20,111 bases of DNA from Candidatus Nanohalarchaeota archaeon (GTDB lineage: Archaea; Nanohalarchaeota; Nanosalinia; Nanosalinales; Nanoanaerosalinaceae). This document shows positions 1 to 20,017 of the stretch, piece by piece. Made by a program: the position numbers and the translations under genes. A model generated the notes under the pieces. The model worked only from the letters and a program-made list of their open reading frames with translations. It was not told the origin of the DNA and searched no databases. Numbering within the stretch: the stretch's first letter is position 1; each line of letters opens with the position of its first letter. The stretch spans positions 1 through 20,111 of the forward strand of contig JALDAG010000015.1 of assembly GCA_022729255.1 (NCBI GenBank), written 5' to 3'.

Positions 1-3000
1 GGAATTAAAGGCAAATCACTGATCCTAACAACTTTTCTGATACTAATTTTCGGTCTTGTCATCGGTGTTCTTCCCGGAGACGAAGTCGATGTTGCAGGTG
101 ATACTGTTTCTGTACAGTTGGAAGAAGGATCAAATTTGATCCCTGCCCTTGATGCAGATCTAAACGATATTTTGGATGCGGGCTGCGACATAGGGCGTTT
201 CAGTGACAGCACAGTAGAGGAGCCTTTCATGTACTTCGACAACACTGTTTATGATTATGTGGAGACCGATTCCTTGAGACATGAGGGAAAGGGTCTCTGG
301 GTTCCTGTTAGAAGCGGCTGCAGTTTTGAGGCAGAAACTTATGTCGCCGAACAGATGAACTTGGGGACAGGGAAAAATGTTTTGACCTTCTCTGCCGACA
401 TCGACATCGACTTATTTGAGATGAATGACTGTCAGTTGAGTTTTTTCAGGGGAGATATATCTTCAAGAGAAGAACCATTCGCAGTTTTCCAAGATGGCGA
501 ATTCATCGCAACTGATTCCGTAAGTGAATATACTCCTGTTTATATACCTATTGAAGATGGATGTACATTTGATTTGGACGCTGCTTTCTGGGATTTAGAG
601 GTATCCTCTGATGAAGGAGGTATTATAAGGGGAGAAGAAGCAGGCCGATTTGCAGAGGGAGAAAAAATTGTTTTGAAAGCGGTTCCTGAAGAAGGATATG
701 TTTTTGGTGGATGGGAACTTGAGGGAAGCTCTGAAAAATGTGATGCTGAGGAGAAAATTTGTGAATTCGAGATAGAGGAAGATACGTTTGTCAGATCAAG
801 TTTTGTTGAAGAAGATGAACCAATAGAACCTCCTTGGGATAGCGAAGTTGAGCTGAATGTTGATTCAGGAGATCTTGTCGAGGTAGTGGAACCAGGTGAG
901 GGAGAGTTTAGTTTTGAAGAGGGACAGGCTGTCGACCTTGTTGCAGAGTTTTCACCCGATTTAGAGCATGAACCAGAATTTTCTTGGATCGGTGATCTGG
1001 AGGCTGTGGAAGACCCTGATTCTCACGAAACAATGATCGTTATGTGGGATGATTATCATGTAAAAGCTGTATACGAGGGCGAAAAAATCGAAAGAGAAAC
1101 TTTCGAAGTATATATCTATTCAGGAGATTTTGTTGAGGTTGTTGAGCCCGGTGAAGGTTACCATGAATTTAAGGAAGGCGAAGTAGTTGAACTGGTAGCT
1201 GAAGTTTCTCCAGATCTCGAAACCGACAAAGGATTTTCATGGATAGGAGATATTAGAACATTAGAAGATTCTGAATCCTTGGAAACACAAGTAGAAGTAC
1301 AAAGAGAGATGGAAATCGGCGCTGATATAGATATGTTGGGAGATACTTCGTACAGGGACTGTATTGATGAAAATGGAGAGATAGCAGAGGCTGACGGCGA
1401 ATACATATGTAGGATTGAAGGTGACAGCTGCCCATCCGGATGGGAACAGTATGAGGAATGGTCAACAACAGAGTCTGATACCTGTACAAGTAGCAACTTC
1501 TTCTGTGGAAGTTCGTGTAGCACTGATAGCCATGAATGGGATAATGAACCCGTTGAAACTTGTACTTATCAGAGAACTAGGAGAGGGATTCTACCCACAT
1601 GTCGCACTGATACATGTGAAGCAGAACTTGTTGAAGTCGGCTGTATAAGAGGAGATGCTCCAGAAGAATATGAAGAGGAAACCTATGATCTTATGATTAA
1701 TGTGTATGGAAGAGGTACTACACAGCCTTCAGGTAGACGAAGACATAGTTTTGAAGAGGGTGAAGAAGTCGTAGTAACTGCTGAACCTGCCGAAGGATTT
1801 TTATTCGCTGGTTTTAGAGGAGACTGTCAAGGCACCGAGAATTGTACATTGGAGATGAATTATGACAAGAGAGTAACGGCAACATTTGAGAGAGACAGGG
1901 AGTGCGAGACTGATAGTGACTGTCAACACCTTTTATGCCCTCAGGCTGTAGGTATGGACACACCTATTTGCGATCCTGAGACCAATACATGTAAATGTGG
2001 AGATGGTGAAGAAGAAGAGGTAGTTGAGGAATACGGGCTCAATATTGATATAGAAGGAGAAGGTTCAACAGAACCCCCTGAAGGTTTCAATACATTTGAA
2101 GAAGGTGAATCTGTTGAATTAGTAGCTGAATCAGAAGATGGCTGGAAATTTGATAGATGGTCTGGAAGATGTTCTGGTAGTGACAAAGAATGCGAATTAA
2201 CTATGAACTCTGATAAAAACGTAACAGCACACTTCAAAGAAACAGAACTTATTGGAGAAGGTTCCTTTGATGATTGTGTGTCTGCTGAAGGTGAGGTAGT
2301 CGAGGTTGATGATGGATATATATGTAGGTTTGATAATAGTAGATGTCCGCACCCACGCATCAGCGATCATCAATGGGAACAGTACAAGGACTGGAGCTCA
2401 ACATCTTCTGACTACTGCAGCAGCAGTAACATACTTTGCGGGACTTCATGTAATACTGAAAGTCATGACTGGGCTAACGAACCAGTTGAAACTTGTACCT
2501 ATGAAAGAACAAGAAGCGGTATTAGCATAGGATGTACTGAAACTGTTTGTAGAGCTGATGTCGATCAGATAGGATGTATTATCACAGAGACTGATGAGGA
2601 GGATTATGACAACGACAATGACAACGACAACGACAATGACTACGAGAATGACAATGACAACGACAATGACTACGAGAATGACAATGACAACGACAATGAC
2701 TACGAGAATGACAATGACAACGACAATGATGATGAGGAAGAAAAAATATGTGAACCAGGAGAGACCAGAAGATGTAGTACAACTTGTACATACAGAGAGT
2801 GTGGAGGAGTCAACGACAATTCTTGCAGAAGACAGAGAGAAACAGTCAGAGGAGAGATGGAGTGTCGGGATGACGGTACTTGGGGATCATGTAGTGATAT
2901 AGGACGCTGCCCTGAGGACCAGTGCAGATTCAATTCTGATTGTAGATTTGATGATGATGAAGATGACGAATTCGAAGAATGCGTTGAAAACTGTGCTGAT

Positions 3001-3057
3001 GATCACTCATCACCTTGTTGGGGAGACACAGCATGCTGTGAGGACAGGTGTTCGTAA
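1..3057 (+). CDS. 5'-truncated large secreted or membrane-anchored surface protein: very acidic, cysteine-rich, modular. It contains InlB B-repeat-like domains, two copies of a ~100-aa Cys-rich module, a small Cys knot, an Asp/Asn repeat linker and a C-terminal Cys-rich domain.
   Basis: Frame 1 is open from nt 1 with no stop, so the track start at TTG 118 is not the real start and the gene begins upstream of the window. Nt 19-78 encode the hydrophobic LILTTFLILIFGLVIGVL signal/anchor followed by PGDEVD. Repeated motifs of the G..V.L.A.P..G..F.GW.G.C.G...C...M..D..V.A.F type (e.g. FEEGEEVVVTAEPAEGFLFAGFRGDCQG..CTLEMNYDKRVTATFE and FEEGESVELVAESEDGWKFDRWSGRCSGSDKECELTMNSDKNVTAHFKE) resemble the Listeria/archaeal InlB B-repeat fold. 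More than 55 Cys residues occur in spaced patterns. Glu+Asp content is extreme. The stop is TAA at 3055-3057. Confidence 0.8.
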   Translation, partial: GIKGKSLILTTFLILIFGLVIGVLPGDEVDVAGDTVSVQLEEGSNLIPALDADLNDILDAGCDIGRFSDSTVEEPFMYFDNTVYDYVETDSLRHEGKGLWVPVRSGCSFEAETYVAEQMNLGTGKNVLTFSADIDIDLFEMNDCQLSFFRGDISSREEPFAVFQDGEFIATDSVSEYTPVYIPIEDGCTFDLDAAFWDLEVSSDEGGIIRGEEAGRFAEGEKIVLKAVPEEGYVFGGWELEGSSEKCDAEEKICEFEIEEDTFVRSSFVEEDEPIEPPWDSEVELNVDSGDLVEVVEPGEGEFSFEEGQAVDLVAEFSPDLEHEPEFSWIGDLEAVEDPDSHETMIVMWDDYHVKAVYEGEKIERETFEVYIYSGDFVEVVEPGEGYHEFKEGEVVELVAEVSPDLETDKGFSWIGDIRTLEDSESLETQVEVQREMEIGADIDMLGDTSYRDCIDENGEIAEADGEYICRIEGDSCPSGWEQYEEWSTTESDTCTSSNFFCGSSCSTDSHEWDNEPVETCTYQRTRRGILPTCRTDTCEAELVEVGCIRGDAPEEYEEETYDLMINVYGRGTTQPSGRRRHSFEEGEEVVVTAEPAEGFLFAGFRGDCQGTENCTLEMNYDKRVTATFERDRECETDSDCQHLLCPQAVGMDTPICDPETNTCKCGDGEEEEVVEEYGLNIDIEGEGSTEPPEGFNTFEEGESVELVAESEDGWKFDRWSGRCSGSDKECELTMNSDKNVTAHFKETELIGEGSFDDCVSAEGEVVEVDDGYICRFDNSRCPHPRISDHQWEQYKDWSSTSSDYCSSSNILCGTSCNTESHDWANEPVETCTYERTRSGISIGCTETVCRADVDQIGCIITETDEEDYDNDNDNDNDNDYENDNDNDNDYENDNDNDNDYENDNDNDNDDEEEKICEPGETRRCSTTCTYRECGGVNDNSCRRQRETVRGEMECRDDGTWGSCSDIGRCPEDQCRFNSDCRFDDDEDDEFEECVENCADDHSSPCWGDTACCEDRCS
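871..1350 (+). repeat. Intragenic tandem duplication of a ~85-aa (255-nt) domain (VEVVEPGEG..F.EG..V.LVAE.SPDLE....FSWIGD...)
   Basis: Two adjacent copies (about 871-1125 and 1126-1350) are clearly alignable at protein level (LVEVVEPGEGEFSFEEGQAVDLVAEFSPDLEHEPEFSWIGDLEAVED vs FVEVVEPGEGYHEFKEGEVVELVAEVSPDLETDKGFSWIGDIRTLED). The DNA has diverged, so this is an old duplication. Confidence 0.7.
1357..1647 (+). repeat. Cys-rich module, copy 1 (DCIDENGE...W.QY..WS....D.C.SSN..CG.SC.T.SH.W.NEPVETCTY.RTR.GI...C....C.A.....GCI)
   Basis: About 97 aa with 10 Cys. Paralogous to 2269-2580. A conserved 45-nt stretch gaacc(c/a)gttgaaacttgtac(t/c)tat... is near-identical between the copies (1546-1590 vs 2479-2523). 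Confidence 0.7.
2269..2580 (+). repeat. Cys-rich module, copy 2
   Basis: DDCVSAEGEVVEVDDGYICRFDNSRCP...WEQYKDWSSTSSDYCSSSNILCGTSCNTESHDWANEPVETCTYERTRSGISIGCTETVCRADVDQIGCI aligns residue-for-residue with copy 1, including all Cys positions. Confidence 0.7.
2608..2727 (+). repeat. In-frame tandem repeat: three perfect 30-bp copies (gactacgagaatgacaatgacaacgacaat at 2638-2667, 2668-2697, 2698-2727) preceded by one degenerate copy (2608-2637). It encodes (DYENDNDNDN)n.
   Basis: Counted directly in the sequence. Unit length is a multiple of 3 and the copies are 100% identical. It sits as a low-complexity linker between Cys module 2 and the C-terminal Cys domain. Confidence 0.9.
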
Positions 3058-3069
3058 GAAAGAGCGAAA

Positions 3070-3117
3070 GTAGAAAGATAACAGGATTTTTCTACTTCTC
3101 AATATTTATTTTTTCGC
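3070..3117. terminator. Bidirectional terminator between convergent genes: hairpin GTAGAAA(3070-3076)/TTTCTAC(3089-3095) with a 12-nt loop, then T-tract 3107-3116
   Basis: The inverted repeat and oligo-T run are seen directly. They lie in the 48-bp gap between the stop of the + gene (3057) and the stop of the - gene (3106). Confidence 0.5.
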
Positions 3118-4614
3118 CATCCTGAAAAGCTTCTTAGCTTTTTCTATAATCCCTGAATCCCCGTGTTTTATATCAAGCATAGATTCTATACTGTTGTACA
3201 GTTTTTCAGTATAAGGAAACCAGTTCAGTTCATCATCTTTATTCCTATTTACCATTACCGATTTCGGCTCAACGAAAGACATCAAACCTTCAGGACCATG
3301 GTAACGTCCTATACCGCTTTTTTTAACTCCTCCAAATGGTGTGTAAGGATTACCGATGTTTTTAACGACGTCGTTTATGTAGCAGTTACCAGTCTTTAAC
3401 ATAGAAGCAATTTTTTTACCTTTTTCTACATCTTCTGTCCAAACACTGGAGTTCAAACCATAAACACTGTCATTAGCAAGTTCAACTGCTTCTTGAACAC
3501 CTTCAAACCCCATTACAGGTATTACCGGTCCAAAGGTTTCTTTTCTCATAACATCCATCTCGTTTGTCACCTGGTCAAGAACGATAGGTTTAAGGAAGTT
3601 GCCCTGATGTTCGAACTCGGTCAACATCTCAGCACCCTTAAAAACAGCGTCATCTACCTGATTTTTGATTAGCTCTATTTGCTCCTCCCTTATCATAGGG
3701 CCCATCTCTGAAGTTTTACTATCACCTATGTCGACCTTTTTAACTTCCTCAAGAAGTTTTTCAATAAATCTTTTCTTGATCGATCTCTCAACATAAACTC
3801 TTTCTGAAGAAACACAGATCTGACCACTATTTGCAAGAGAGCCGTAAACAACCCCTTTGACAGCTCTATCCAGATCAGCGTCCTCGAAAACTATGAAAGG
3901 ATCTTTACCACCTAGCTCTAATTCCACATCAATTAGGTTTTCAGAAGCCTTTTTCATGACTTCTTTACCCGTTTCAACTCCTCCAGTGAAAAATATCTTG
4001 TCAGGCTTGTTCTCTATAATTTTTTCCCCTACTTCTCCGCCTCCATGAACCACTTGGAAAACGTTTTGCGGAAAACCGGCTTTATCTATAAGTTCTTCAA
4101 TCTTCTTACCTGTCAAAGGAGTAATTTCAGAGGTTTTCAGTATCACAGTGTTTCCAGCAACAAGCGCTGTGATCGAAGGTATCAGAGATATCTGGAAAGG
4201 GTAATTCCAAGGAGATATCACGGATACCACACCGTAGGGCTGGTATTCAACGTATGAATAATTTTTACTAAACTCTATAGGAGTTCTCCTTTTCTCTTTT
4301 TTCAGTATCTTTTCTGAATTATTCTCGTAATACTTTATGAAATCTAAAGTGGTCATTATTTCCGCCATCAGTATTTCTACGTCTGGTTTACCTGTATCGG
4401 ATTTCAAAGTGTGTAAGATGTCGTCCAGATTGTTTAAAACAGTTTTTCTGAATTCCTTGAGAAAAAAACATCTATCAGCTATGTCAAGGTTTTTCCACTC
4501 TTTAAGAGATGTCCTAGCAAGAAAAAACTTTTTTTCTATTTCTTGGTCGGTCGAAACTTTAACAGAACCTTTTTTTTCATTGTCCACGGGGTCGAATGCA
4601 TGGAGATCTTTCAT
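3106..4614 (-). CDS. NAD(P)-dependent aldehyde dehydrogenase (ALDH superfamily)
   Basis: 502 aa. ELGGKDP glutamate-active-site motif, catalytic Cys context GQICVSSERVYV, and Rossmann FTGGVETGKEVM. Typical ALDH length. Confidence 0.85.
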   Translation of the reverse strand: MKDLHAFDPVDNEKKGSVKVSTDQEIEKKFFLARTSLKEWKNLDIADRCFFLKEFRKTVLNNLDDILHTLKSDTGKPDVEILMAEIMTTLDFIKYYENNSEKILKKEKRRTPIEFSKNYSYVEYQPYGVVSVISPWNYPFQISLIPSITALVAGNTVILKTSEITPLTGKKIEELIDKAGFPQNVFQVVHGGGEVGEKIIENKPDKIFFTGGVETGKEVMKKASENLIDVELELGGKDPFIVFEDADLDRAVKGVVYGSLANSGQICVSSERVYVERSIKKRFIEKLLEEVKKVDIGDSKTSEMGPMIREEQIELIKNQVDDAVFKGAEMLTEFEHQGNFLKPIVLDQVTNEMDVMRKETFGPVIPVMGFEGVQEAVELANDSVYGLNSSVWTEDVEKGKKIASMLKTGNCYINDVVKNIGNPYTPFGGVKKSGIGRYHGPEGLMSFVEPKSVMVNRNKDDELNWFPYTEKLYNSIESMLDIKHGDSGIIEKAKKLFRMAKK

Positions 4615-4694: not shown

Positions 4695-5156
4695 ATGGAG
4701 AAACTCAACTCAAGGATAAAAAAACTTTGGATATCTCTTGGTTTGTTTTCAGGACTGTTAATAGGTGTTTTACCAGCAATCTACACATATTTTTACTTGG
4801 AAAATTTACTTTTATCGTTAATCAGCATCTCTTTATTTCCCATAATCTTTATCTGGTATGCCGTGAAGAGATTTGCGAACTGGAGATTCGATGTAAGAGA
4901 GGATCATATAGAGATAAAAAAAGGAGTATTCATCATCGTTTCGATATATGCACCCTACGTAAGAATCCAGCACATAGATACAGTGAGAAATCCTGTTTCA
5001 AGAATACTTGGTTTAAGCTCTCTTAGGATTTATACCGCTGGTTCGAAAGGAGCTGATTTAACTATACCCGGCCTTGATAAGGAAAAAGCTGAATACATAC
5101 AGGAACAGCTTAAACAAAAAGCTATCCAGTCCGAGAAAGGTTTTGATGCTGTATGA
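4695..5156 (+). CDS. ydbS: YdbS-like membrane protein with bacterial PH (bPH_2/DUF304) domain
   Basis: 153 aa. Two N-terminal TM helices are followed by the ...RIQHIDTVRNPVSRILGLSSLRIYTAG... signature typical of bPH_2. Its stop overlaps the next gene's start (ATGA at 5153-5156), as in Bacillus ydbST. Confidence 0.7.
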   Translation: MEKLNSRIKKLWISLGLFSGLLIGVLPAIYTYFYLENLLLSLISISLFPIIFIWYAVKRFANWRFDVREDHIEIKKGVFIIVSIYAPYVRIQHIDTVRNPVSRILGLSSLRIYTAGSKGADLTIPGLDKEKAEYIQEQLKQKAIQSEKGFDAV

Positions 5157-6559
5157 AATTATCCAAGAAAACAATAGTTTACAGAGGTATATCTAATACA
5201 GGAGGCGTACTGGTTTTTCTATTATTTGGCGGTATTTTCAATCCTTTGATACTTTTCCTTGGTTTTATACCATTATCATTAGTTGCGTTCGGCTACATGT
5301 ACGTTTACTGGAAGAACTATGACATATTTTTTGAGGATCACGATATAAAGATTGTTTCAGGTGTTTTCTCAAAGAAAGATCTTGATATACCGGTTAGAAG
5401 AATTCAGAACATCAATATCAAGGAAAATATTTTGCTCAGGATCCTTGAAATCTCCGAGGTACATATCGAGACAGCTGGCGGTAGCGAAACCGAAGCAACC
5501 ATAAAGTTCTTGGAGAAAGAAGACGCAGAAAAATTGAGAGAGAAAATAAGGAATCTCAAGAGCAGAAGGAAAAAAGAAACTGAAGAAGAAGCTCAGAAAG
5601 ACGAAGAAGAGTACGCACTAACTTTTAAAAAACTCTTGGTATACAGCTTGATAGATTCGATCTCGATAAAGTTGTTGTTGCCTCTCTTAATTTTTATCGG
5701 AGGTTTCATATTTGCAAATTATTATTTAGAAGTCTTTTTACATATAATAGGAGCATTTTTTGGACTGCTTGTCATTGCATTGTTGATACTAGGATTAGAG
5801 ATGATATCAACCGGTGTAAAAGTTTTTGAGAATTATTATGGTTTCAAGGTAGTTAGAAAAAATGATTCTCTTGAATACGAGAAAGGTCTTTTTAATCGGC
5901 AGGGAGGAACAGTACCTATTGAAAAGTTACAGAAACTTGTTATAGAGGAAAACATAGTTGAAAGGATACTGGGTTATGCTACTTTAAAAGTTGAGACAGC
6001 AGGAGCAAGCATAGCTGAGAAAGTATCTACCACAAAAGTTATCGTGCCATTGGATAAAAAAGAAGAGGTAATAAAAACAGCGGAAAAAATAGGAGAGTTC
6101 GAATATCCGGTTAAAATGGAAGAAGTGGCCGAAAGAGCGGAGGAAAGATACTTCAGAAGATATCTATTGATCGGACTGACTGTTTTCTTAATCTTAGTAC
6201 CGTTTGCATTGACTATACTGAACCCGATGGTGTTTTTGATACCTTTAACTATAGCTATGATCAGTAAAAAAGCCTCCAACCTGAAATGGATTAACCAGAG
6301 GTACTTTCTTGGCGAGGAAAACATCTTTGTAAGGAAAGGGTTCTGGAGACGTAGAACCTATGCAGTACCTTATTTCAGGTTCCAGAACTTTATAGAATCT
6401 CAGACAGTTCTCCAAAAAAGATGGGATCTCTCAAAAATTACTGTTGATACGGCTGGTGATCTCTGGATTAACCCGGAAATAATTGATTTGGACAAGGAGT
6501 CTAGCGGAGAACTCATCCAAGAACTTTTTGACAGATTCAACAGAAGCATCTGCAACTAG
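5153..6559 (+). CDS. ydbT: YdbT-like membrane protein with three bPH_2 domains
   Basis: 468 aa. Repeated TM pairs each precede a PH-like segment ending in ...TAG motifs (EVHIETAGGSE, LKVETAGASIAE, KITVDTAGDLW). The 4-nt overlap with the upstream gene indicates translational coupling. Confidence 0.7.
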   Translation: MKLSKKTIVYRGISNTGGVLVFLLFGGIFNPLILFLGFIPLSLVAFGYMYVYWKNYDIFFEDHDIKIVSGVFSKKDLDIPVRRIQNINIKENILLRILEISEVHIETAGGSETEATIKFLEKEDAEKLREKIRNLKSRRKKETEEEAQKDEEEYALTFKKLLVYSLIDSISIKLLLPLLIFIGGFIFANYYLEVFLHIIGAFFGLLVIALLILGLEMISTGVKVFENYYGFKVVRKNDSLEYEKGLFNRQGGTVPIEKLQKLVIEENIVERILGYATLKVETAGASIAEKVSTTKVIVPLDKKEEVIKTAEKIGEFEYPVKMEEVAERAEERYFRRYLLIGLTVFLILVPFALTILNPMVFLIPLTIAMISKKASNLKWINQRYFLGEENIFVRKGFWRRRTYAVPYFRFQNFIESQTVLQKRWDLSKITVDTAGDLWINPEIIDLDKESSGELIQELFDRFNRSICN

Positions 6560-7989: not shown

Positions 7990-8529
7990 ATGGAAGAAGA
8001 AAATTTTAAGAGTATCTGGGGAAAGAAAAAAGTCTTGCTTACCGCATTACTGGTAATTGTTTTACTGGTTGGTGGAGGATTTTTTGTATTAAACACAGAA
8101 TTTGACGATTTTTTTGGTGAAGAAGAAATTGAACGTTTTGGGGAAGAAATAACATCTGATGAACTAAGTCTCTTTGAAGCCGCTCAAGAAGGAGATGTGG
8201 AGACTTTGAAGGAACTTATCGAAGAAGTTGATAATATAGATGTAGAGAGTAATTATGGTAGAACTCCTATGATGCTGGCAGCCAACAACGGTCATACCGA
8301 AGCAACCAGGCTTTTGTTGGAAGAAGGAGCGGATATAGGTAAAAAGAACATTTACCATGAGACTGCTCTTATGATGGCAGCTCATGAAGGACACGTGGAA
8401 ACTGTTGAATTGTTGATAGAATACGGTGCTGACGTGAACGTTGAGAGAGATGACGGCACACATATTCTTGATTTCACTGAACACGAAGAAATAGAAAATA
8501 TCTTGAGGCAACACGGCGCATCGAGATGA
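7990..8529 (+). CDS. Membrane-anchored ankyrin-repeat protein (N-terminal signal anchor, acidic linker, about 3 ANK repeats)
   Basis: KSIWGKKK plus the hydrophobic VLLTALLVIVLLVGGGFFVL stretch. ANK consensus G.TPLM.AA..GH...LLL..GAD in NYGRTPMMLAANNGHTEATRLLLEEGADIG, YHETALMMAAHEGHVETVELLIEYGADVN and DDGTHILDF. The TATA-like aataaataatata lies about 25 bp upstream of the ATG. Confidence 0.8.
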   Translation: MEEENFKSIWGKKKVLLTALLVIVLLVGGGFFVLNTEFDDFFGEEEIERFGEEITSDELSLFEAAQEGDVETLKELIEEVDNIDVESNYGRTPMMLAANNGHTEATRLLLEEGADIGKKNIYHETALMMAAHEGHVETVELLIEYGADVNVERDDGTHILDFTEHEEIENILRQHGASR

Positions 8530-8594: not shown

Positions 8595-9914
8595 ATGGAT
8601 AAACCTAGATTTTTAGCCAAACTTTTCTCCATCCTCCTTTGGTTGATCATATTTTTGACAGTTTTCCAGTTCTTGATAGGAGCAAGAAACATAGCTAATT
8701 ATGAAAAACAAGTACTTGAACAAAATATAATACATGAAATCGATAACAGGATTGAAAGAGGTATAGATGTATTTACTGAGATAAAGGAGAAAGAAGAGCA
8801 CTACTATGTTTCCATGATAAAAGACGAGATCGGAAAGGTGGAGTACGAGATACCCAAAGAAAATGACAGGGAGTTCTCGGTATTTCTATTCGGTGGTTCA
8901 TCAGTCGTTTTTCCTGTTGGAGAACATATGAACTTCCCTGAACATCTCGAAGAAAAGGTAAAAAATAGGACGGAAGCTAATTTTTCGATCTACAACTTTG
9001 GTATGCCGGGTGTATCCACAAGTACAATACTTAACTCTCTGGAAAGGATTCTTGAAGTGAAAGAACCCGACATGGTGGTGATATATACAGGTCACAACGA
9101 CTATTTTTTAACACATCACATGTTTACGGAAAACACCCCTGATATTTTTTATGATGAAAACGTTTTGTGGCCTCTTTACAACAGTCTGGGTCCCTTGATT
9201 GATAGAGAAAGCGCTTACATGTATGATTCCAAGAGGATAACGGAGTACAGGATGATGACCTTAGCACATTCCATAGGATTGGTTGATGGAAAAAGAATAT
9301 TTGATTTAAAGAAAAAGACCGATAAAATTATAGAGGAGGAATACTTTGAGGAAAATATTAAAGATATCCAGAGTTTAACAGAAGAGAGAAGTATTGATTT
9401 GGTGTTCCTAACAACCATATCCAGGATCAGAGGAGTTAGAACAGAAGAGATGTTTCTTTCAAAGGATGAGATGGCAGAATTTCATGATTTTGTGGATAGA
9501 GCTGAAAGTTATTTGGAACAAGAGGAATTCGATAGATCTCTCGAAATATTTGGAAAAGCACTCGATATAAATGATAATAGCTCTAAAATCTATGAGAGAA
9601 TAGGTGAGATATATGAGGGTAGAGAGGAATACATGAAAGCCCAGGAGAACTTTATAAAATCTAAGGACAGAAATGTTTTCGGTCAGGATCCCAGAGCTCC
9701 TTCTTATTTCAATGAAATACTTAGAAATGTTGAGAAAGAGAAAGTATACACAGTTGATGTTCGGAAAAAGTTACTGGAGGATGAGGATTATCCTTTGATG
9801 GACAATGATTTCTTTGACAGTGAAATACATATAGGAGGAGATAACACTGGTCAGGTTGCTGAAAAAATCTTTTTAGGACTTGAAAAAAGAGGATTGATTG
9901 ATGATTTCGAATAA
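8595..9914 (+). CDS. Membrane-anchored SGNH/GDSL-family hydrolase with inserted TPR-like repeats (paralog A)
   Basis: N-terminal TM (FLAKLFSILLWLIIFLTVFQFLIG). SGNH blocks: I VFLFGGSSV, II NFGMPGVS, III IYTGHNDY, V FFDSEIH. TPR-like helices (SYLEQEEFDRSLEIFGKALDIND..IYERIGEIYEGREEYMKAQENF). Clear paralog of 11917-13215. Confidence 0.65.
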   Translation: MDKPRFLAKLFSILLWLIIFLTVFQFLIGARNIANYEKQVLEQNIIHEIDNRIERGIDVFTEIKEKEEHYYVSMIKDEIGKVEYEIPKENDREFSVFLFGGSSVVFPVGEHMNFPEHLEEKVKNRTEANFSIYNFGMPGVSTSTILNSLERILEVKEPDMVVIYTGHNDYFLTHHMFTENTPDIFYDENVLWPLYNSLGPLIDRESAYMYDSKRITEYRMMTLAHSIGLVDGKRIFDLKKKTDKIIEEEYFEENIKDIQSLTEERSIDLVFLTTISRIRGVRTEEMFLSKDEMAEFHDFVDRAESYLEQEEFDRSLEIFGKALDINDNSSKIYERIGEIYEGREEYMKAQENFIKSKDRNVFGQDPRAPSYFNEILRNVEKEKVYTVDVRKKLLEDEDYPLMDNDFFDSEIHIGGDNTGQVAEKIFLGLEKRGLIDDFE

Positions 9915-9949
9915 TCGATTCGACCTCAAAAAAATATCTAGGTGATTCT

Positions 9950-10933
9950 ATGGAATTAGGAAAATATTCTGATATGGATCTGTTGGAAAAGGTCGTTGTT
10001 CATACACCAACTACTACTTCTATAGATTCGGTAAAAGAAAACCCTGAAAAACATCTTTTCAATGAAATACCTGACAAGAAAAGGTTTCTTGAGGAAAAAA
10101 CCATGTTCACAGATATTTTGAAGGATAACGGTGTTGATGTGTTACACCTGACTGAACTACTGATGAGGGCAGAGAAAGACCTAGATGATAAATTAATCGA
10201 TGAGATTGTTAATCTGATGTATGTTAGGGATATAGGTACTGTTATCCTGGATTATCTGGTGAGATGCAGTATGTCGGAGAGATTGAGACAGAAGGAGGAA
10301 GAAATATTTGATTTTTTAATAAAGCATCAAGGCTTAAATCGTGATTACGAGGTTTTAAGACCGGTAAAACCGATTGAAGGAGGGGATATATTTATTCCTA
10401 GGTATAACACGATGATTGTTGGAAACTCCTTGAGAACATCGGAGCAAGGAATTATTGAACTAGGGGAAGGATTGGTAGATAGCTCTATAGATAAAATAAT
10501 TATGTTAAATGTTCCTAGAGAGGATAGTGCGATACATCTGGATATGGTGTTTTCCCAGCTTGAGAAAAACCTTTTCATGGTTGATAAAAGATTTTCAAAA
10601 AATATGGAGTGTTTTTTGATAGAAGTATGTTCTGATGGACCGAAAATGAGGAAAAATAAAAAAAGTATCGATGAAATTTTGAAAGAAGAATTAGGTAGAG
10701 ATGTGGAAGTTTTAAAAGTAGATGAGAGAAAAGAACAGAAGATGTGCGGATTTAACGTCTTACCGATTGAAAGTTCGAAAGTCATAGCTTTTCAAGAAAA
10801 CAGGAATATAAACAGGTTGATACGAAACATGGGAATTGAAGTCATCGAGGTAATGGGACGAGAACTGATGAAGGGTAATGGCGGACCAAGATGCATGACG
10901 TTGCCATTAAAAAGGAATAGAGGTTCAAGATAA
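9950..10933 (+). CDS. Arginine deiminase family (guanidino-modifying/amidinotransferase superfamily) enzyme, short form
   Basis: 327 aa. ADI-like N-terminus (L.KVVVHTP...LF...........F...L...GVDVLHLTELL). Catalytic His motif SAIHLDMVFSQL (ADI: MHLDTVF). C-terminal catalytic Cys motif GNGGPRCMTLPLKR (ADI: GGG.CM..P). SD AGGTGA at 9940-9945. It lacks the ~80-aa helical insertion of classical 410-aa ADIs. Confidence 0.65.
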   Translation: MELGKYSDMDLLEKVVVHTPTTTSIDSVKENPEKHLFNEIPDKKRFLEEKTMFTDILKDNGVDVLHLTELLMRAEKDLDDKLIDEIVNLMYVRDIGTVILDYLVRCSMSERLRQKEEEIFDFLIKHQGLNRDYEVLRPVKPIEGGDIFIPRYNTMIVGNSLRTSEQGIIELGEGLVDSSIDKIIMLNVPREDSAIHLDMVFSQLEKNLFMVDKRFSKNMECFLIEVCSDGPKMRKNKKSIDEILKEELGRDVEVLKVDERKEQKMCGFNVLPIESSKVIAFQENRNINRLIRNMGIEVIEVMGRELMKGNGGPRCMTLPLKRNRGSR

Positions 10934-10935
10934 TT

Positions 10936-11910
10936 ATGGTCAAGAGAAGTCTGGTAAAGTTAAGTAATAATAAAAAAGAGAGGTTAGAAAAGATACTTTC
11001 TATATCAGAATATGTCAAAAGACAGGATTATTCTGATAAAAAACTCGAAGGAAAAAATATAGCTCTTTTGTTTGAAAAACCCTCGACAAGAACAAGATCT
11101 GCGTTTGAAATAGCTGTAAAAGATTTAGGAGGTAACACAGTATTTTTGGATAAAGAAGAAATTCATTTAGGTTATAGAGAAAGTCTAGAGGACACTGCAA
11201 AGGTTCTTGAAAGTTATTTTGACGGTGTAGGTTTTCGAGGTATGAGACATGAAAAAGTTGAGAGACTGGATCAACACACATCAATCCCTGTTTGGAATCT
11301 TTTAACTGATAAATTCCACCCTACGCAGGTTTTATCCGATTTTTTCACGATTGAAGAAGTCTTTGAGAAGGATTTGTCAGATATAAAGCTTGCATATATT
11401 GGTAACGGTATCAACAATGTTTTAAATTCTTTGATAGTCGGGGCAGCGAAGACAGGTATGAATATGAGGATTGTAACCCCTGAAGAACTCAGACCTGATA
11501 GAAAATTAATGGTAAAATCCAGAAACATAGCCAGGAAACAAAATTCTACTTTAAAGTGTTTTTCAAACGTTGAAAAAGGTTTGGAGGAAGTTGATGTAGT
11601 TTATACAGATGTATGGGTTTCCATGAATGATCCGAAATCAGAATGGGATGAAATGATAGATAAACTTAGTCCATACAGTGTTGACAATGAAAAAATGGAT
11701 TTGACCTCCGAAAACTCTGTTTTTATGCACTGTCTTCCAGCCTTACATGATAAAGAAACAATTCTAGCTGACAAAATATGTGAAAGACATGGAATCGAAT
11801 GTTTGGAAGTCAGTGACAATGTCTTCAGATCCGATAGTTCGATTGTTTTTCAGCAGTCAGAGAACAAGTTGCATACCCTGAAATCCTTGTTGATAGATTC
11901 GTTTGATTAG
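10936..11910 (+). CDS. argF: Ornithine carbamoyltransferase
   Basis: 324 aa. Carbamoyl-phosphate motif STRTR (FEKPSTRTRSAFEIA), HPTQ, the ornithine-binding region DVWVSMND (canonical DVWVSMG) and the OTC-specific FMHCLPALHD (ATCase has HPLP). It starts 2 bp after the upstream gene. Whether it is catabolic (arcB-like) or anabolic cannot be decided. Confidence 0.85.
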   Translation: MVKRSLVKLSNNKKERLEKILSISEYVKRQDYSDKKLEGKNIALLFEKPSTRTRSAFEIAVKDLGGNTVFLDKEEIHLGYRESLEDTAKVLESYFDGVGFRGMRHEKVERLDQHTSIPVWNLLTDKFHPTQVLSDFFTIEEVFEKDLSDIKLAYIGNGINNVLNSLIVGAAKTGMNMRIVTPEELRPDRKLMVKSRNIARKQNSTLKCFSNVEKGLEEVDVVYTDVWVSMNDPKSEWDEMIDKLSPYSVDNEKMDLTSENSVFMHCLPALHDKETILADKICERHGIECLEVSDNVFRSDSSIVFQQSENKLHTLKSLLIDSFD

Positions 11911-11916
11911 GAATAC

Positions 11917-13215
11917 CTAGTTAACCATAGAACTTTCTTCAAGACCCTTGAATATTTTCTTGGCTATTATTTCGTTGTATTCAGAGTTGAAGTGAACCCA
12001 GTCATCAAAGAGATCGGGTTTAAACAGAAGTTTATTGTTGTCTTCCTTCAACAACTTTTTGAGATCTACAACTGTTACGTGAGAACCGTTCAAACTTCTG
12101 ATAAAATTGTTTATGGAGGATTTGGCTCTGACGTCATAGCTGAAATCATCCTTGTCTCTGGCAATCCTTAAACTTCTCAGAGATTTATCCGTTTCTCCCA
12201 ACTCTTCATATATCAGGCCTTTCTTGTAATGAATCATAGCATTCTTACTGTTTAACTTTTCCGCATCTTTGAAGTTTTCTATAGCCTGTTCATAATTTTG
12301 TTTATTCAAATCTTCGAAACCTCTATCCCTATAATTGATGAAATCATCTCTCGATGTTTCATTTACGAAATCATAATCTATCTCAAAAGGCCTTATCTTT
12401 AGATTTGAACTTACTGTGATGAAAACTGTTTCAACGCCTTTTCTCTCGGTGATTTCCACAATTTTTTCCATATTTGTCTTATAAGAGTCTAAAGCATTTT
12501 CATTGACTAAATTCATTATGTCATATACCTTTTCCGAGTCAATTATACCAACTGACATACCTAGATTGATAAGATAAGGTGTAATGGTATTTCTTTTCAA
12601 ATCCTCTATTTCGTGATTAGGCCTTCCTGAAAGAAAGGTCTTTCTGTAGAGATACCATATCAGATTATTTTCAAGTAAATCAAGTTCATCCCTGATTATA
12701 TTATGGGATTCAAAGTGGTCGTTGTGCCCGGAGTATATCAGAACCATTTCAGGTTTTTCCATATTGATGCTTTTGTTTAAGCTTTTGACAATTGATGTGG
12801 AACGAGCACCACTTTTTGCTAGGTTATAGACTTTTTTACTCTGATTATTTTCCTGTTCAAAAATGTTTTCGAGATAAAGAGGTATATATTTCTTTTCGCA
12901 GAAAGGTGTGACCATAGAGGAACCACTAAAAACATATATATGATCTGAAGCATTACTATCAATCTTGAATGTTTCCCTAAAACATTTTCTTTCTATCTCA
13001 ATAAACTTTTCATTATTTGAATTCAAATTATCAAAGTAATGACCATTCTCATTATATCTAAGACCTCTGAAACTCGTGTTTAGTTCCTCTAGATCAATAT
13101 TATTGATATTATTAGAACTTGAAACAAACTGAATTATAGGGATGATGGTCAAGGACCATAAAATTAAGATGAGGACTATAAAAGTTTTTTCCCATGGTTT
13201 TGAGGTTTCATCCAT
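11917..13215 (-). CDS. Membrane-anchored SGNH/GDSL-family hydrolase with inserted TPR-like repeats (paralog B)
   Basis: N-terminal TM (TFIVLILILWSLTIIPIIQFV). Blocks: I YVFSGSSMV, II NLAKSGARS, III IYSGHNDH, V LFDDWVH (DxxH). TPR-like LNKQNYEQAIENFKDAEKLNSKNAMIHYKKGLIYEELGETDKSLRSL. Collinear alignment with 8595-9914 over about 350 aa. Its stop is 6 bp from the convergent OTC stop. Confidence 0.65.
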   Translation of the reverse strand: MDETSKPWEKTFIVLILILWSLTIIPIIQFVSSSNNINNIDLEELNTSFRGLRYNENGHYFDNLNSNNEKFIEIERKCFRETFKIDSNASDHIYVFSGSSMVTPFCEKKYIPLYLENIFEQENNQSKKVYNLAKSGARSTSIVKSLNKSINMEKPEMVLIYSGHNDHFESHNIIRDELDLLENNLIWYLYRKTFLSGRPNHEIEDLKRNTITPYLINLGMSVGIIDSEKVYDIMNLVNENALDSYKTNMEKIVEITERKGVETVFITVSSNLKIRPFEIDYDFVNETSRDDFINYRDRGFEDLNKQNYEQAIENFKDAEKLNSKNAMIHYKKGLIYEELGETDKSLRSLRIARDKDDFSYDVRAKSSINNFIRSLNGSHVTVVDLKKLLKEDNNKLLFKPDLFDDWVHFNSEYNEIIAKKIFKGLEESSMVN

Positions 13216-17981: not shown

Positions 17982-18302
17982 CTATAGCCTTTCTTCAACC
18001 CATTCAACTATATCATCCGATTCCATAACACCTGAAAAACCATCTTTCTTCTCTCCATCTATAAATAAGACGACATGAGGAATACTTCTAACTCCAAGAT
18101 CTTCTGAGACTTCAGGCAACTCATCTATGTTGACCTTCACAAAATTAACGGAACTCATCTCTTTACCACACTTCTCAAATTTAGGTCCGAGTTTTTTGCA
18201 TGGGAGACACCATTCAGCCCAAAAATCCACTACCACGGGGTTTTCTTCGGATTTTTTCAGGACCTTTTTTTCAAACTCTTCCTCATTCTTTATCTCTTCC
18301 AT
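17982..18302 (-). CDS. trxA: Thioredoxin
   Basis: 106 aa. Active site WAEWCLPCK (Trx WCGPC variant) and cis-Pro context SIPHVVLF. Its start is 11 bp downstream of the stop of the Trx-CcdA gene. Confidence 0.85.
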   Translation of the reverse strand: MEEIKNEEEFEKKVLKKSEENPVVVDFWAEWCLPCKKLGPKFEKCGKEMSSVNFVKVNIDELPEVSEDLGVRSIPHVVLFIDGEKKDGFSGVMESDDIVEWVEERL

Positions 18303-18313
18303 AAATATTCACC

Positions 18314-19504
18314 TCACAAAAACGGCAAAAAATACTGCAGGTAGTAGTAAGCCAAGAAAAACATGATTAGAGAGGCTGCAAGTGTAGTCCATGTAACCAC
18401 ATTTTCTTGGTCGAACCACATTTTTTTCGTTAAAACCGCTCCAAGGAAAATAACAAGTTCTATGAACATGTAAAAGAACAGGTACATCAAAATATAAGCC
18501 CCTGAAGCCATCGTAGTAACACCGGCGTCTGCCAGCACCCCTGTGAATACAAGTGGAAGACCTATCGAACACGGCAGTTCAACTATTACCATCACCAGTG
18601 CAAAAAGAATAATTATACCTGCTGTTGCAAACAAACCTGATTTAGGGTTTTTAAGGACTTGGGTGACTTTTCTTCTCACCTTTGAAACGTACTTGTTCCC
18701 TGTGGTCTCACACGTGGGTCCGTACTTGTAAAACTGCAAAAATTCCTTGAAAAAATAAATACCTGCTGTAAGTGCTACAAGACCTATAAATAATTCTAGA
18801 AGCCCTAGATAACCTATTATAGCGTTTATTAGGCCGTACCATGCGAATACTATGATTCCATAAACTGAGACTGTGGTCAGAATAAAGAGTCCTCCATAAA
18901 AAAGTATTTTCTTCCTTGAATCAAGTTTCAAAACGATGCCAAGTATCAATAACAAAGCTCCTATACTACAGACATTGAAACCATCTGCTGTACCTAGTAC
19001 AGTGGCCAGCAAGGGTAAGGAAAATTTGGATATATCTGTTTCACCTATAAACGGAAGATTAACCATTCTTTCATCTCTATCACCTTCATCGACTTTACCC
19101 TTCACAACGTTTTCTATACCTCTCTGTATGGTTGAATCGAACCCTTGGAAGAACTCTCCACCCACAAAAGTCATGGGAACAGCTATCCTTTCGATAGTTA
19201 CATTGTATTCTTCGGCAAGATCGTCAAGTTTTTGCATAGATTCTTCATCATAAATGTTGTGCTTGTAAACATCCAGTTCAGGATGGTCTTCAAAAAGGGT
19301 TTGGTGGAACTTTTCTTGATCAGTACATACAGGACAACCATCCATGTAAAAGTAGTGGTACTCTATTTTACTTTCTTCATCTGAAACATTGTTATTATCA
19401 TCTCCGATTGTTTCTGTTCCACTTACAGCTCCAATAAGAAATACCGAGATCGCTAATATTACTAGAAGTGTTTTGATAATTCTTTTCATGTGTTCCACCA
19501 ACAA
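18314..19504 (-). CDS. Fusion of an extracytoplasmic thioredoxin/glutaredoxin-like domain (CPVC) to a CcdA/DsbD-type transmembrane thiol-disulfide electron transporter
   Basis: N-terminal signal/anchor (IIKTLLVILAISVFLIGAVSG). Trx-like YFYMDGCPVCTDQEKF....MTFVGGEFFQGF. Then 6-8 TM helices with the two conserved CcdA Cys, in FNVCSIGALLLILG and VELPCSIGLPLVFTG. Confidence 0.8.
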   Translation of the reverse strand: MLVEHMKRIIKTLLVILAISVFLIGAVSGTETIGDDNNNVSDEESKIEYHYFYMDGCPVCTDQEKFHQTLFEDHPELDVYKHNIYDEESMQKLDDLAEEYNVTIERIAVPMTFVGGEFFQGFDSTIQRGIENVVKGKVDEGDRDERMVNLPFIGETDISKFSLPLLATVLGTADGFNVCSIGALLLILGIVLKLDSRKKILFYGGLFILTTVSVYGIIVFAWYGLINAIIGYLGLLELFIGLVALTAGIYFFKEFLQFYKYGPTCETTGNKYVSKVRRKVTQVLKNPKSGLFATAGIIILFALVMVIVELPCSIGLPLVFTGVLADAGVTTMASGAYILMYLFFYMFIELVIFLGAVLTKKMWFDQENVVTWTTLAASLIMFFLAYYYLQYFLPFL

Positions 19505-19534
19505 CTTATTATTTGAAACAGGTTAAAAAGATAG

Positions 19535-19551
19535 GTTTCATATCCTGAAAC
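19535..19551. promoter_or_regulatory. Inverted repeat GTTTCA-tatcc-TGAAAC, about 31-47 bp upstream of the Trx-CcdA start, plus direct repeats TGAAACAG at 19514-19521 and 19546-19553
   Basis: Seen directly in the 67-bp gap between the regulator stop (19571) and the Trx-CcdA start (19504). It overlaps the expected BRE/TATA position (ggttaaaaagatagg). Confidence 0.4.
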
Positions 19552-19570
19552 AGCAGGTTTAACACCGTTT

Positions 19571-20017
19571 CTAACAGTATTTTTTGTCCAATTTCACTAA
19601 ATTAGTGTTACCGTTGGGAAGTTTTTCTATAATTCCTTTTTGTTCCATTTTTTTAAGAATCCTGCTGACCTTAACCTTTGAAAGCCCGGTCTTTTTGACA
19701 ATCTTCGACTGCATGATTTCTTTTTCCCTGAAAAGTACCTCCATAACTTTTCTATCATTTTCTTCCATCAATTTAAGAATAGTACCTGTTTCTACATGGT
19801 CTTTCTCCTCATCTTTGAAAAGCACGAAAATAAGCATACCTGTGAAAAGTCCTAAAGAGCCCATGAAAGGTATGAAGAGGTATGGTGGTACAGCACATCC
19901 ACAGTATACATCTTCCCCTATATTTAACTGGGTGTAAAGTGATGATAAAGAAACCGCTAGTACGAATAAAGATATCAGGACCATCCCAGCCACATACTTT
20001 TTCCTGCTTTTCATCAC
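19571..20017 (-). CDS. Membrane-anchored winged-HTH transcriptional regulator with 2 TM helices and a short external loop carrying a CGC motif
   Basis: 148 aa. Positively charged N-terminus MMKSRKK, TM1, the loop TQLNIGEDVYCGCAVPPY, TM2, then the cytoplasmic wHTH ILKLMEENDRKVMEVLFREKEIMQSKIVKKTGLSKVKVSRILKKMEQKGIIEK (MarR/TrmB-like). Confidence 0.7.
   Translation of the reverse strand: MMKSRKKYVAGMVLISLFVLAVSLSSLYTQLNIGEDVYCGCAVPPYLFIPFMGSLGLFTGMLIFVLFKDEEKDHVETGTILKLMEENDRKVMEVLFREKEIMQSKIVKKTGLSKVKVSRILKKMEQKGIIEKLPNGNTNLVKLDKKYC

Follow-up and report, generated by a model that had tools for sequence, protein, structure and literature searches.

Nanohaloarchaea devote more than 10% of their genomes to elaborate surface proteins that are thought to mediate host contact (PMC10266531). 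Among these, the LamG proteins and the SPEARE giants of nanohaloarchaea and other DPANN archaea are modular proteins anchored at the N-terminus, encoded in surface-gene clusters and presumed to act at the host interface (PMC10266531, PMC9765267). Little is known about how bacteria of the Candidate Phyla Radiation (CPR) and DPANN archaea recognise and attach to their hosts, and annotation is lacking for most proteins of their cell surface. Here we analyse a stretch of 20,111 nucleotides from a Candidatus Nanohalarchaeota archaeon (GenBank assembly GCA_022729255.1, contig JALDAG010000015.1; the whole stretch is referred to as the window), whose first 3,057 nucleotides encode a highly acidic, cysteine-rich protein of this known class, the modular DPANN surface proteins. 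The new part of the protein is a duplicated ten-cysteine (10-Cys) domain, which belongs to an unnamed family common to CPR bacteria and DPANN archaea and which probably helps ultra-small symbionts to bind their hosts.

The window protein shares with the LamG proteins and the SPEARE giants the organism group, a predicted N-terminal anchor, a modular build, a location in a surface-gene cluster and the presumed role in host contact. It is much smaller than the SPEARE proteins (1,023 residues as against several thousand), PF18998 is its sole Pfam family, and no LamG, protease or VirB4-like ATPase domain was detected in it with Pfam and NCBIfam models. The disulfide-rich modules that define it are mentioned in neither PMC9765267 nor PMC10266531. 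A further likeness is to the InlB-type B-repeat proteins (PF18998), of which Listeria internalin B is the prototype, and it comprises an N-terminal export signal and five spacer units of ~70–85 residues. The window protein differs from these in its archaeal, halophilic host, in the lack of leucine-rich repeat and GW modules, and in the alternation of its B-repeats with Cys-rich modules, which are absent from the Listeria-type proteins; three of the five B-repeats also carry a Cys pair of their own. The comparison with the tips of type IV pilins and phage tail fibres is drawn because receptor-binding domains sit at the extreme C-terminus of such proteins, the position held by the 10-Cys domain in CPR prepilins (loci L009 and L010) and in proteins with stalk repeats. 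For the 10-Cys domain, however, there is no match among PHROG, Pfam and PDB families, and the window protein carries it twice, in internal positions.

The gene occupies frame 1 of the plus strand, which runs without interruption from nt 1 to a stop codon at 3055–3057 and comprises 1,018 codons in the window; no longer competing open reading frame (ORF) was found at nt 1–3057 in the window ORF list. An earlier sequence-only reading of the window had described a giant protein with its N-terminus off-window, an estimate that shrinks to five missing residues (MRCNY) and a total of 1,023. This follows from the start of a 98%-identical protein (P0001), in which MRCNY precedes the GIKGKS… of the window, from the gene call on the source contig, which gives a full length of 1,023 residues, and from in-frame closure three codons before the ATG. 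The source contig (ENA ERZ27266004 k141_484660, 157 kb; L013), of whose end the window is the reverse complement with one mismatch in 14.6 kb compared, places the true start codon 15 nt upstream of the window, with an AT-rich, TATA-like stretch 5′ of the ATG.

Given this evidence for frame and start, the hydrophobic segment encoded at nt ~16–78 (aa ~6–26) is a genuine N-terminus, and the open frame with a signal or anchor segment described in the sequence-only reading is borne out with the 5′ end recovered from the source contig. Hydropathy identifies this segment as the single hydrophobic one in the whole protein, and the full-length AlphaFold2 (AF2) prediction models it as a helix (aa 7–20). 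The full-length protein begins MRCNYGIKGKSLILTTFLILIFGLVIGVLPGDEVDV…, with an n-region (R, K, K), a 19-residue h-region and PGDE. No [KR]G-hydrophobic prepilin motif was seen at the N-terminus by eye, and no C-terminal hydrophobic or membrane-anchor segment was found by hydropathy over the whole protein, nor a PGF-CTERM. The features of the gene are given below by nucleotide position in the window, with AF2 confidence as the predicted local distance difference test (pLDDT) and HMM denoting a hidden Markov model.

1–75, plus strand: predicted signal peptide or signal-anchor (aa 1–25, GIKGKSLILTTFLILIFGLVIGVLP), from hydropathy and the AF2 helix; no Cys.
76–609, plus strand: two weakly similar orphan modules (aa 26–113 and 114–203), two Cys each, from internal BLASTP; no Pfam match.
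610–816, plus strand: B-repeat 1 (Flg_new_2, divergent InlB B-repeat; aa 204–272), two Cys, from PF18998 and self-similarity.
838–1323, plus strand: tandem pair of Cys-free B-repeat units (aa 280–360 and 365–441), from BLASTP to protein P0002 and self-comparison.
1324–1680, plus strand: 10-Cys domain, copy A (aa 442–560), from the family HMM; AF2 pLDDT ~85–97.
1681–1896, plus strand: B-repeat 2 (Flg_new_2; aa 561–632), two Cys, from PF18998, self-comparison and AF2.
1897–2004, plus strand: six-cysteine (6-Cys) mini-module (aa 633–668), C-x5-C-x4-C-x10-C-x6-C-x-C, from sequence and ortholog conservation.
2005–2244, plus strand: B-repeat 3 (Flg_new_2; aa 669–748), two Cys, containing the strongest Pfam stretch (aa 685–747).
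2245–2601, plus strand: 10-Cys domain, copy B (aa 749–867), from the family HMM and a stand-alone AF2 model.
2606–2729, plus strand: 30-nt tandem repeat of 4.1 copies encoding D/N-rich DNDNDNDYEN units (module aa 868–911, no Cys), from TRF.
2734–3057, plus strand: orphan 16-Cys C-terminal region (aa 912–1018) plus stop; no Pfam match, AF2 pLDDT <50.

The 10-Cys domain is the most distinctive of these modules. Its duplication, recognised in the sequence-only reading as a repeated ~100-residue unit, is real: the two copies (aa 442–560 and 747–867, ~105–120 residues) are 50% identical. Copy A carries the canonical motif CPSGWxQYxxWSxT…H…ETCxY…GC, and copy B has a six-residue insertion inside the CPSGW motif (CPHPRISDHQW). 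Both copies show the family signature, which consists of nine conserved Cys columns and one of variable position together with CPSGW…QY..WS.T…H.W…E.C.Y…GC, and both are matched by the family HMM (domain E-values of 9e-34 for copy A and 4e-30 for copy B). Neither copy has a Pfam match at E <= 10, and comparison of the whole protein with NCBIfam and PDB sequences gave nothing relevant. An exhaustive HMMER search with a profile built on the two copies yielded 248 representative clusters at E <= 1e-3, including 21 at E <= 1e-10; a word-index profile search gave four proteins. The suggestion that the module may be a new domain therefore stands, on the combination of no Pfam or NCBIfam match with a family of ~250 representative clusters, and in 146 members no Pfam or NCBIfam model covers the domain. 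Outside the Cys, near-invariance is seen within CPSGW (Pro, Gly and Trp) and at a Thr, a His, a Glu and a Tyr, residues that could make up either a binding or a catalytic site.

The domain lies at the exact C-terminus in 135 of the 144 matched domain stretches, most of which end in [IV]GCY. Member proteins are short (median 263 residues), an N-terminal hydrophobic segment is present in 112 of 139 complete members, and their accessory domains are all of extracellular types (TSP1, dockerin, cadherin, Big, PKD, fn3, collagen and prepilin N_methyl). When species-representative genomes were scanned for its best-conserved motif as a pattern, matches came from Ca. Nanoanaerosalina, Woesearchaeota, Paceibacterota/Parcubacteria, Moraniibacteriota, Gracilibacteria and Minisyncoccales; one weak, partial match to Proteobacteria stands beside these otherwise CPR and DPANN genomes. 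In Minisyncoccales and Paceibacterota (L009 1498–3297 and L010 1825–3294), proteins of 490–600 residues start like canonical type IV prepilins (…FTLIEMLIV…) and finish with a 10-Cys domain whose last residues are GCY, and the stalk repeats of some other members match phage tail-fibre PHROGs. Most of the genomes found to carry the domain belong to ultra-small episymbionts, and its usual place in the family is the distal C-terminal tip of membrane-anchored, type-IV-pilin-like or tail-fibre-like proteins. The closest non-orthologous relative is a metagenomic protein of 426 residues (P0009), which has a signal or anchor segment, a 6-Cys mini-module and two tandem 10-Cys domains. Its mini-module has the spacing of window aa 635–666, which no other protein found outside the orthologs shares, and because P0009 contains both modules the combination of 6-Cys and 10-Cys recurs outside the nanohaloarchaea.

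A phage origin of the domain was considered and rejected: PHROGs matched the stalk repeats or pilin N-termini of some relatives only and not the 10-Cys domain, and there was no structural match in BFVD. A pattern scan of IMG/VR viral contigs for the domain gave one partial match of 13 residues, and at this level the domain is all but missing from them.

Tandem paralogues of genes for 10-Cys proteins are present in three CPR loci (L004 4231–6096, L006 2001–3663 and L005 2548–4269). In L004 and L006 two genes also form a conserved pair, the first for an anchored protein of ~360 residues that ends in CGW[IT]ETNP and the second for a 10-Cys protein whose N-terminal part carries an RAWVEP motif.

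Copy B alone gave a mostly beta AlphaFold model of high confidence (pLDDT of 93.3 and predicted template modelling score of 0.82, from a 42-sequence alignment). No structural match to this model was found among PDB and viral (BFVD) structures, and the modelled domain is thus without a known structural relative within solved and viral structures. Across 143 aligned domains the Cys number is exactly ten in 97 and even in 84%, and losses occur in pairs (C4 and C8 are missing together 12 times, C5 and C6 four times). Such paired loss in the alignment is as expected of disulfide partners and argues against metal sites with three or four ligands.

Two relationships to known proteins were examined and dismissed. 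Pancreatic RNase A is a weak match to the family profile (E = 0.31), aligned so that six Cys coincide while the catalytic histidines of the enzyme stay uncovered; the match is not significant and there is no fold similarity. The disulfide topology of RNase A also differs from the pairs C4–C8 and C5–C6 deduced here. As for a C-type lectin, CPSGW alone aligns to a snake-venom C-type lectin-like domain (E = 6.5), and there was neither a Pfam Lectin_C match nor a structural one.

The remaining modules include the B-repeats. PF18998 (Flg_new_2) matches the protein with E = 2e-33 (114.6 bits with a cut-off of 23.6 bits) over three stretches, and the two Cys-free tandem units match the PF18998 repeats of P0002 (BLASTP, E = 3e-12), which together make five B-repeats where at least four had been proposed. 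AF2 models the B-repeats as confident all-beta units (pLDDT 80–95). B-repeat 1 (pLDDT 80–94) is self-similar to aa 578–629 and 699–747, and the tandem duplication of ~85 residues, also noticed earlier, has 64% identity between aa 284–356 and 369–441 (pLDDT ~85–95). The linker DRECETDSDCQHLLCPQAVGMDTPICDPETNTCKCG had been taken for an 8-Cys knottin or EGF-like module; it contains six Cys, has no HMM match and is modelled without confidence. For the corresponding mini-module (aa 633–668) there was no Pfam match better than E = 2.3 and AF2 pLDDT was <50, and it is possibly a small 6-Cys disulfide module, kept in the Nanoanaerosalina ortholog described below. The orphan N-terminal modules resemble each other between aa 70–110 and aa 154–191 (internal BLASTP, E = 3e-5). 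Pfam, NCBIfam and PDB-sequence searches made module by module returned nothing beyond PF18998, and a homolog search with the whole protein returned the near-identical allele and B-repeat proteins only. For the orphan N- and C-terminal regions, a chimeric-query search gave the near-identical allele P0001 as the sole database relative, and there was no Pfam match.

Both the Cys richness and the acidity of the protein exceed the local background. There are 52 Cys in the window portion (5.1%) and 53 in the full protein, slightly fewer than the more than 55 counted at first, compared with 0.76% Cys in the other 18 window ORFs (binomial p = 5e-26). From the N- to the C-terminus the modules contain 2, 2, 2, 0, 0, 10, 2, 6, 2, 10, 0 and 16 Cys, even numbers throughout. 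The isoelectric point (pI) is 4.05, with 26.6% D+E and 6.5% K+R, as against a median pI of ~5.4 for the 18 neighbouring window ORFs, so the description of the protein as extremely acidic holds. The moderate acidity of the neighbours agrees with the mean proteome pI of 5.69–6.16 published for Nanoanaerosalinaceae (PMC9765267), and the surplus acidity relative to cytoplasmic neighbours is consistent with exposure to brine.

The genome, described from the letters alone as possibly archaeal, is that of a halophilic DPANN archaeon, a member of the Nanohaloarchaeota related to Ca. Nanoanaerosalina. In Ca. Nanoanaerosalina halalkaliphila NHA20 the gene has an ortholog that is both syntenic and collinear (43% identity, E = 8e-52). 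The NHA20 protein is acidic and 5′-truncated, and comprises a B-repeat, a 10-Cys domain, a B-repeat and the 6-Cys mini-module in this order. In both genomes a convergent aldehyde dehydrogenase gene follows, the window copy of which (3106–4614) is 65% identical to that of NHA20. By this comparison a conserved core of the protein keeps its place in the genome, whereas the second copy of the 10-Cys domain, the D/N repeat and the 16-Cys tail have been added in the window lineage. A scan of JGI metagenomes for close halophilic orthologs found none. The allele of a second sample (L001) is 60 nt shorter, which corresponds to two 30-nt units fewer and makes the tandem repeat polymorphic in copy number; its remaining differences over the 3-kb gene are two non-synonymous substitutions. 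Just off-window, in the source contig (L013 14716–20057), lie genes for a 347-residue secreted BsuPI/Ig-like protein with a B-repeat-like unit and for an N-terminally anchored, right-handed beta-helix/NosD protein that exceeds 1,029 residues, and on the strength of these two genes the region is a surface-protein cluster.

From these features the following arrangement is proposed. The N-terminal hydrophobic helix would direct export by the Sec pathway and, if uncleaved, would tether the protein to the membrane, and the remainder would extend outwards into the brine, one small beta-rich module after another. In this chain the five InlB-type B-repeats would serve as spacers between Cys-rich modules held by ~26 disulfides, the 10-Cys domains would be ligand- or host-surface-binding modules, and the protein as a whole would be an adhesin for contact with a haloarchaeal host or substrate, in agreement with the view of a heavy nanohaloarchaeal investment in surface proteins (PMC10266531). 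We infer export, disulfide bonding in vivo and adhesive function with different degrees of confidence. An exported, disulfide-bonded surface protein, as suggested in the sequence-only reading, is very probable, and fits the N-terminal signal or anchor, the presence of extracellular-type modules only and the even Cys counts. Adhesion as the specific function is an evenly balanced proposal. The combined reading, an anchored, adhesin-like surface protein, is given a probability of roughly 0.55.

Several observations weigh against this combined reading. No known lectin or adhesin domain was found in the protein, and there is no C-terminal anchor; the protein may be tethered or, if its signal is cleaved, released. 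The terminal thirds are orphan, with AF2 models of pLDDT <50. Copies A and B are internal, end in GCI and are followed by further modules, unlike the C-terminal …GCY of the family, and the near-invariant His, Glu and Tyr could equally well belong to a catalytic site. Related organisms favour anoxic sediments (PMC9765267), in which disulfides are harder to form.

Some of the same features would suit a structural protein of the envelope or matrix (cell wall, S-layer-associated coat or extracellular matrix), in which the Cys modules confer stability in brine and no host is specifically recognised. Envelope proteins are typically built in this way, modular, repetitive and highly acidic, with B-repeats as spacers; the gene adjoins those of the beta-helix/NosD and BsuPI/Ig-like proteins, and the repeat length is polymorphic. 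Such a role is nonetheless unlikely, given that the protein has two N-glycosylation sequons only, no PGF-CTERM or other C-terminal anchor and no match to S-layer families in the Pfam and NCBIfam searches; moreover, the 10-Cys domain elsewhere occurs singly, as the tip of a pilin or of a short anchored protein, which better suits a terminal interaction module than a lattice. The C-terminal position of the domain behind highly diverse N-terminal regions also recalls polymorphic toxins, and the 10-Cys domain might then be a small disulfide-stabilised catalytic or toxin domain, such as a nuclease or hydrolase, borne on varied carriers of a secreted effector or enzyme. The near-invariant His, Glu, Thr and Tyr and the weak profile echo of RNase A would be in keeping with this. 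We consider it improbable, as that echo falls short of significance and is at odds with the Cys pairs, no immunity-like gene follows (the gene converges on that of the aldehyde dehydrogenase), and the domain is internal and duplicated here.

An extracellular metal-binding protein, whose Cys clusters would bind Zn, Cu or Fe to capture metals or to carry out redox reactions in the anoxic sediment of soda lakes, would account for the very high Cys content and the conserved His and would match the anoxic hypersaline sediments inhabited by relatives. It is very improbable: the Cys counts per module are even and Cys are lost in twos, not as groups of three or four ligands, the compact beta-rich domain is modelled with confidence without a metal, and no metal-binding family was matched in the Pfam and NCBIfam searches. 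The adhesin-like reading is the preferred one. As a subject for experiment, the 10-Cys domain offers a compact, testable family with a confident model; in CPR and DPANN alike it recurs as the outermost part of anchored proteins and of pilins, and a nanohaloarchaeal lineage keeps it at a fixed genomic position. If it does bind host envelopes, it could be used to predict host range and to block attachment, and would represent symbiosis hardware shared across domains of life; if it is merely stabilising, the window protein would be an ordinary, though unusually cysteine-rich, halophile surface protein.

Genes that might service disulfides lie 15 kb from the surface-protein gene at the other end of the window, with unrelated genes between. 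They comprise two features:

17982–20017, minus strand: apparent operon of a DUF7343 helix-turn-helix (HTH) regulator, a fusion of a glutaredoxin (Grx)-like domain with six transmembrane helices (6-TM), and a thioredoxin.
18314–19489, minus strand: fusion ORF of an exported Grx-like CPVC domain and the 6-TM domain, with a signal peptide and six TM helices.

The HTH gene precedes the fusion ORF, and the thioredoxin gene lies directly downstream of it; the redox operon compared below with known systems spans 17982–19489. The fusion had been called a Trx–CcdA fusion, a name not supported for either half. The N-terminal domain with CPVC is glutaredoxin-like (family profile with PDB entry 3lgc, E = 9e-5), and in the PDB the family profile matches glutaredoxins and thioredoxins only. 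The 6-TM domain matched no DsbD/CcdA or VKOR models or structures, and in Pfam at E <= 10 there were weak matches of the N-domain to Grx/Trx-like families alone; no Pfam or NCBIfam model is assigned to the fusion protein, for which the precomputed Pfam field is empty. The invariant Cys of the 6-TM domain are C174 (FNVCSIG, TM1) and C307 (ELPCSIG, TM4), at equivalent positions in the two halves, together with one loop Cys; alignment of the halves with hhalign gave a probability of 1.4%, and a 3+3 internal repeat is not demonstrable. More than 60 full-length homologs (38–69% identical), several from Patescibacteria, carry no Pfam annotation. At a CPR locus (L015) a small glutaredoxin gene directly follows the homolog, and at another archaeal locus the same HTH gene lies upstream.

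CPR bacteria are enriched in MdbA-like oxidoreductases and VKOR for the disulfides of secreted proteins (bioRxiv 10.1101/335083). The fusion resembles the DsbD/CcdA–thioredoxin conduits and the CPR MdbA/VKOR systems in its exported CPxC domain of the thioredoxin fold and in a 6-TM domain with invariant Cys in TM1 and TM4, and also in the cytoplasmic thioredoxin or glutaredoxin gene immediately downstream in archaeal and CPR loci. It differs in lacking any detectable sequence relationship to DsbD/CcdA or to VKOR, and as no CcdA or DsbD model or structure was matched, the likeness to DsbD is limited to architecture. The fusion suggests an electron conduit of the DsbD type and may represent an unnamed, DsbD-like thiol-redox family common to CPR and DPANN. 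A link between the redox genes and the surface protein is plausible but circumstantial, and would draw on their distance of 15 kb and on the occurrence of both families in CPR and DPANN. Taking these families together, we tentatively suggest that the 10-Cys module is an undescribed disulfide-rich fold that serves as a host-attachment tip domain common to, and probably exchanged between, CPR and DPANN, displayed on pilins, tail-fibre-like stalks and nanohaloarchaeal B-repeat proteins, with its folding possibly serviced by the unnamed Grx–6-TM family and thioredoxin; this wider proposal is doubtful at present.

Other genes of the window stand apart from the surface protein. At 4695–6559, two adjacent membrane-associated proteins with bacterial PH (bPH_2) domains (153 and 468 residues, the latter with three bPH_2 units) are basic, with pI values of 8.2–9.5 amid acidic surroundings. 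An ankyrin-repeat protein of 179 residues is encoded in this archaeal genome at 7990–8529; it exceeds its neighbours in acidity (pI of 4.3) and may act as an effector or in protein interactions. The region 8595–13215 looks like an arginine deiminase-pathway island with an unusual symmetrical flank. It includes the genes for arginine deiminase (9950–10933) and ornithine carbamoyltransferase (10936–11910), which are flanked by genes for paralogous TPR+GDSL-like proteins on opposite strands (8595–9914 on the plus strand and 11917–13215 on the minus strand).

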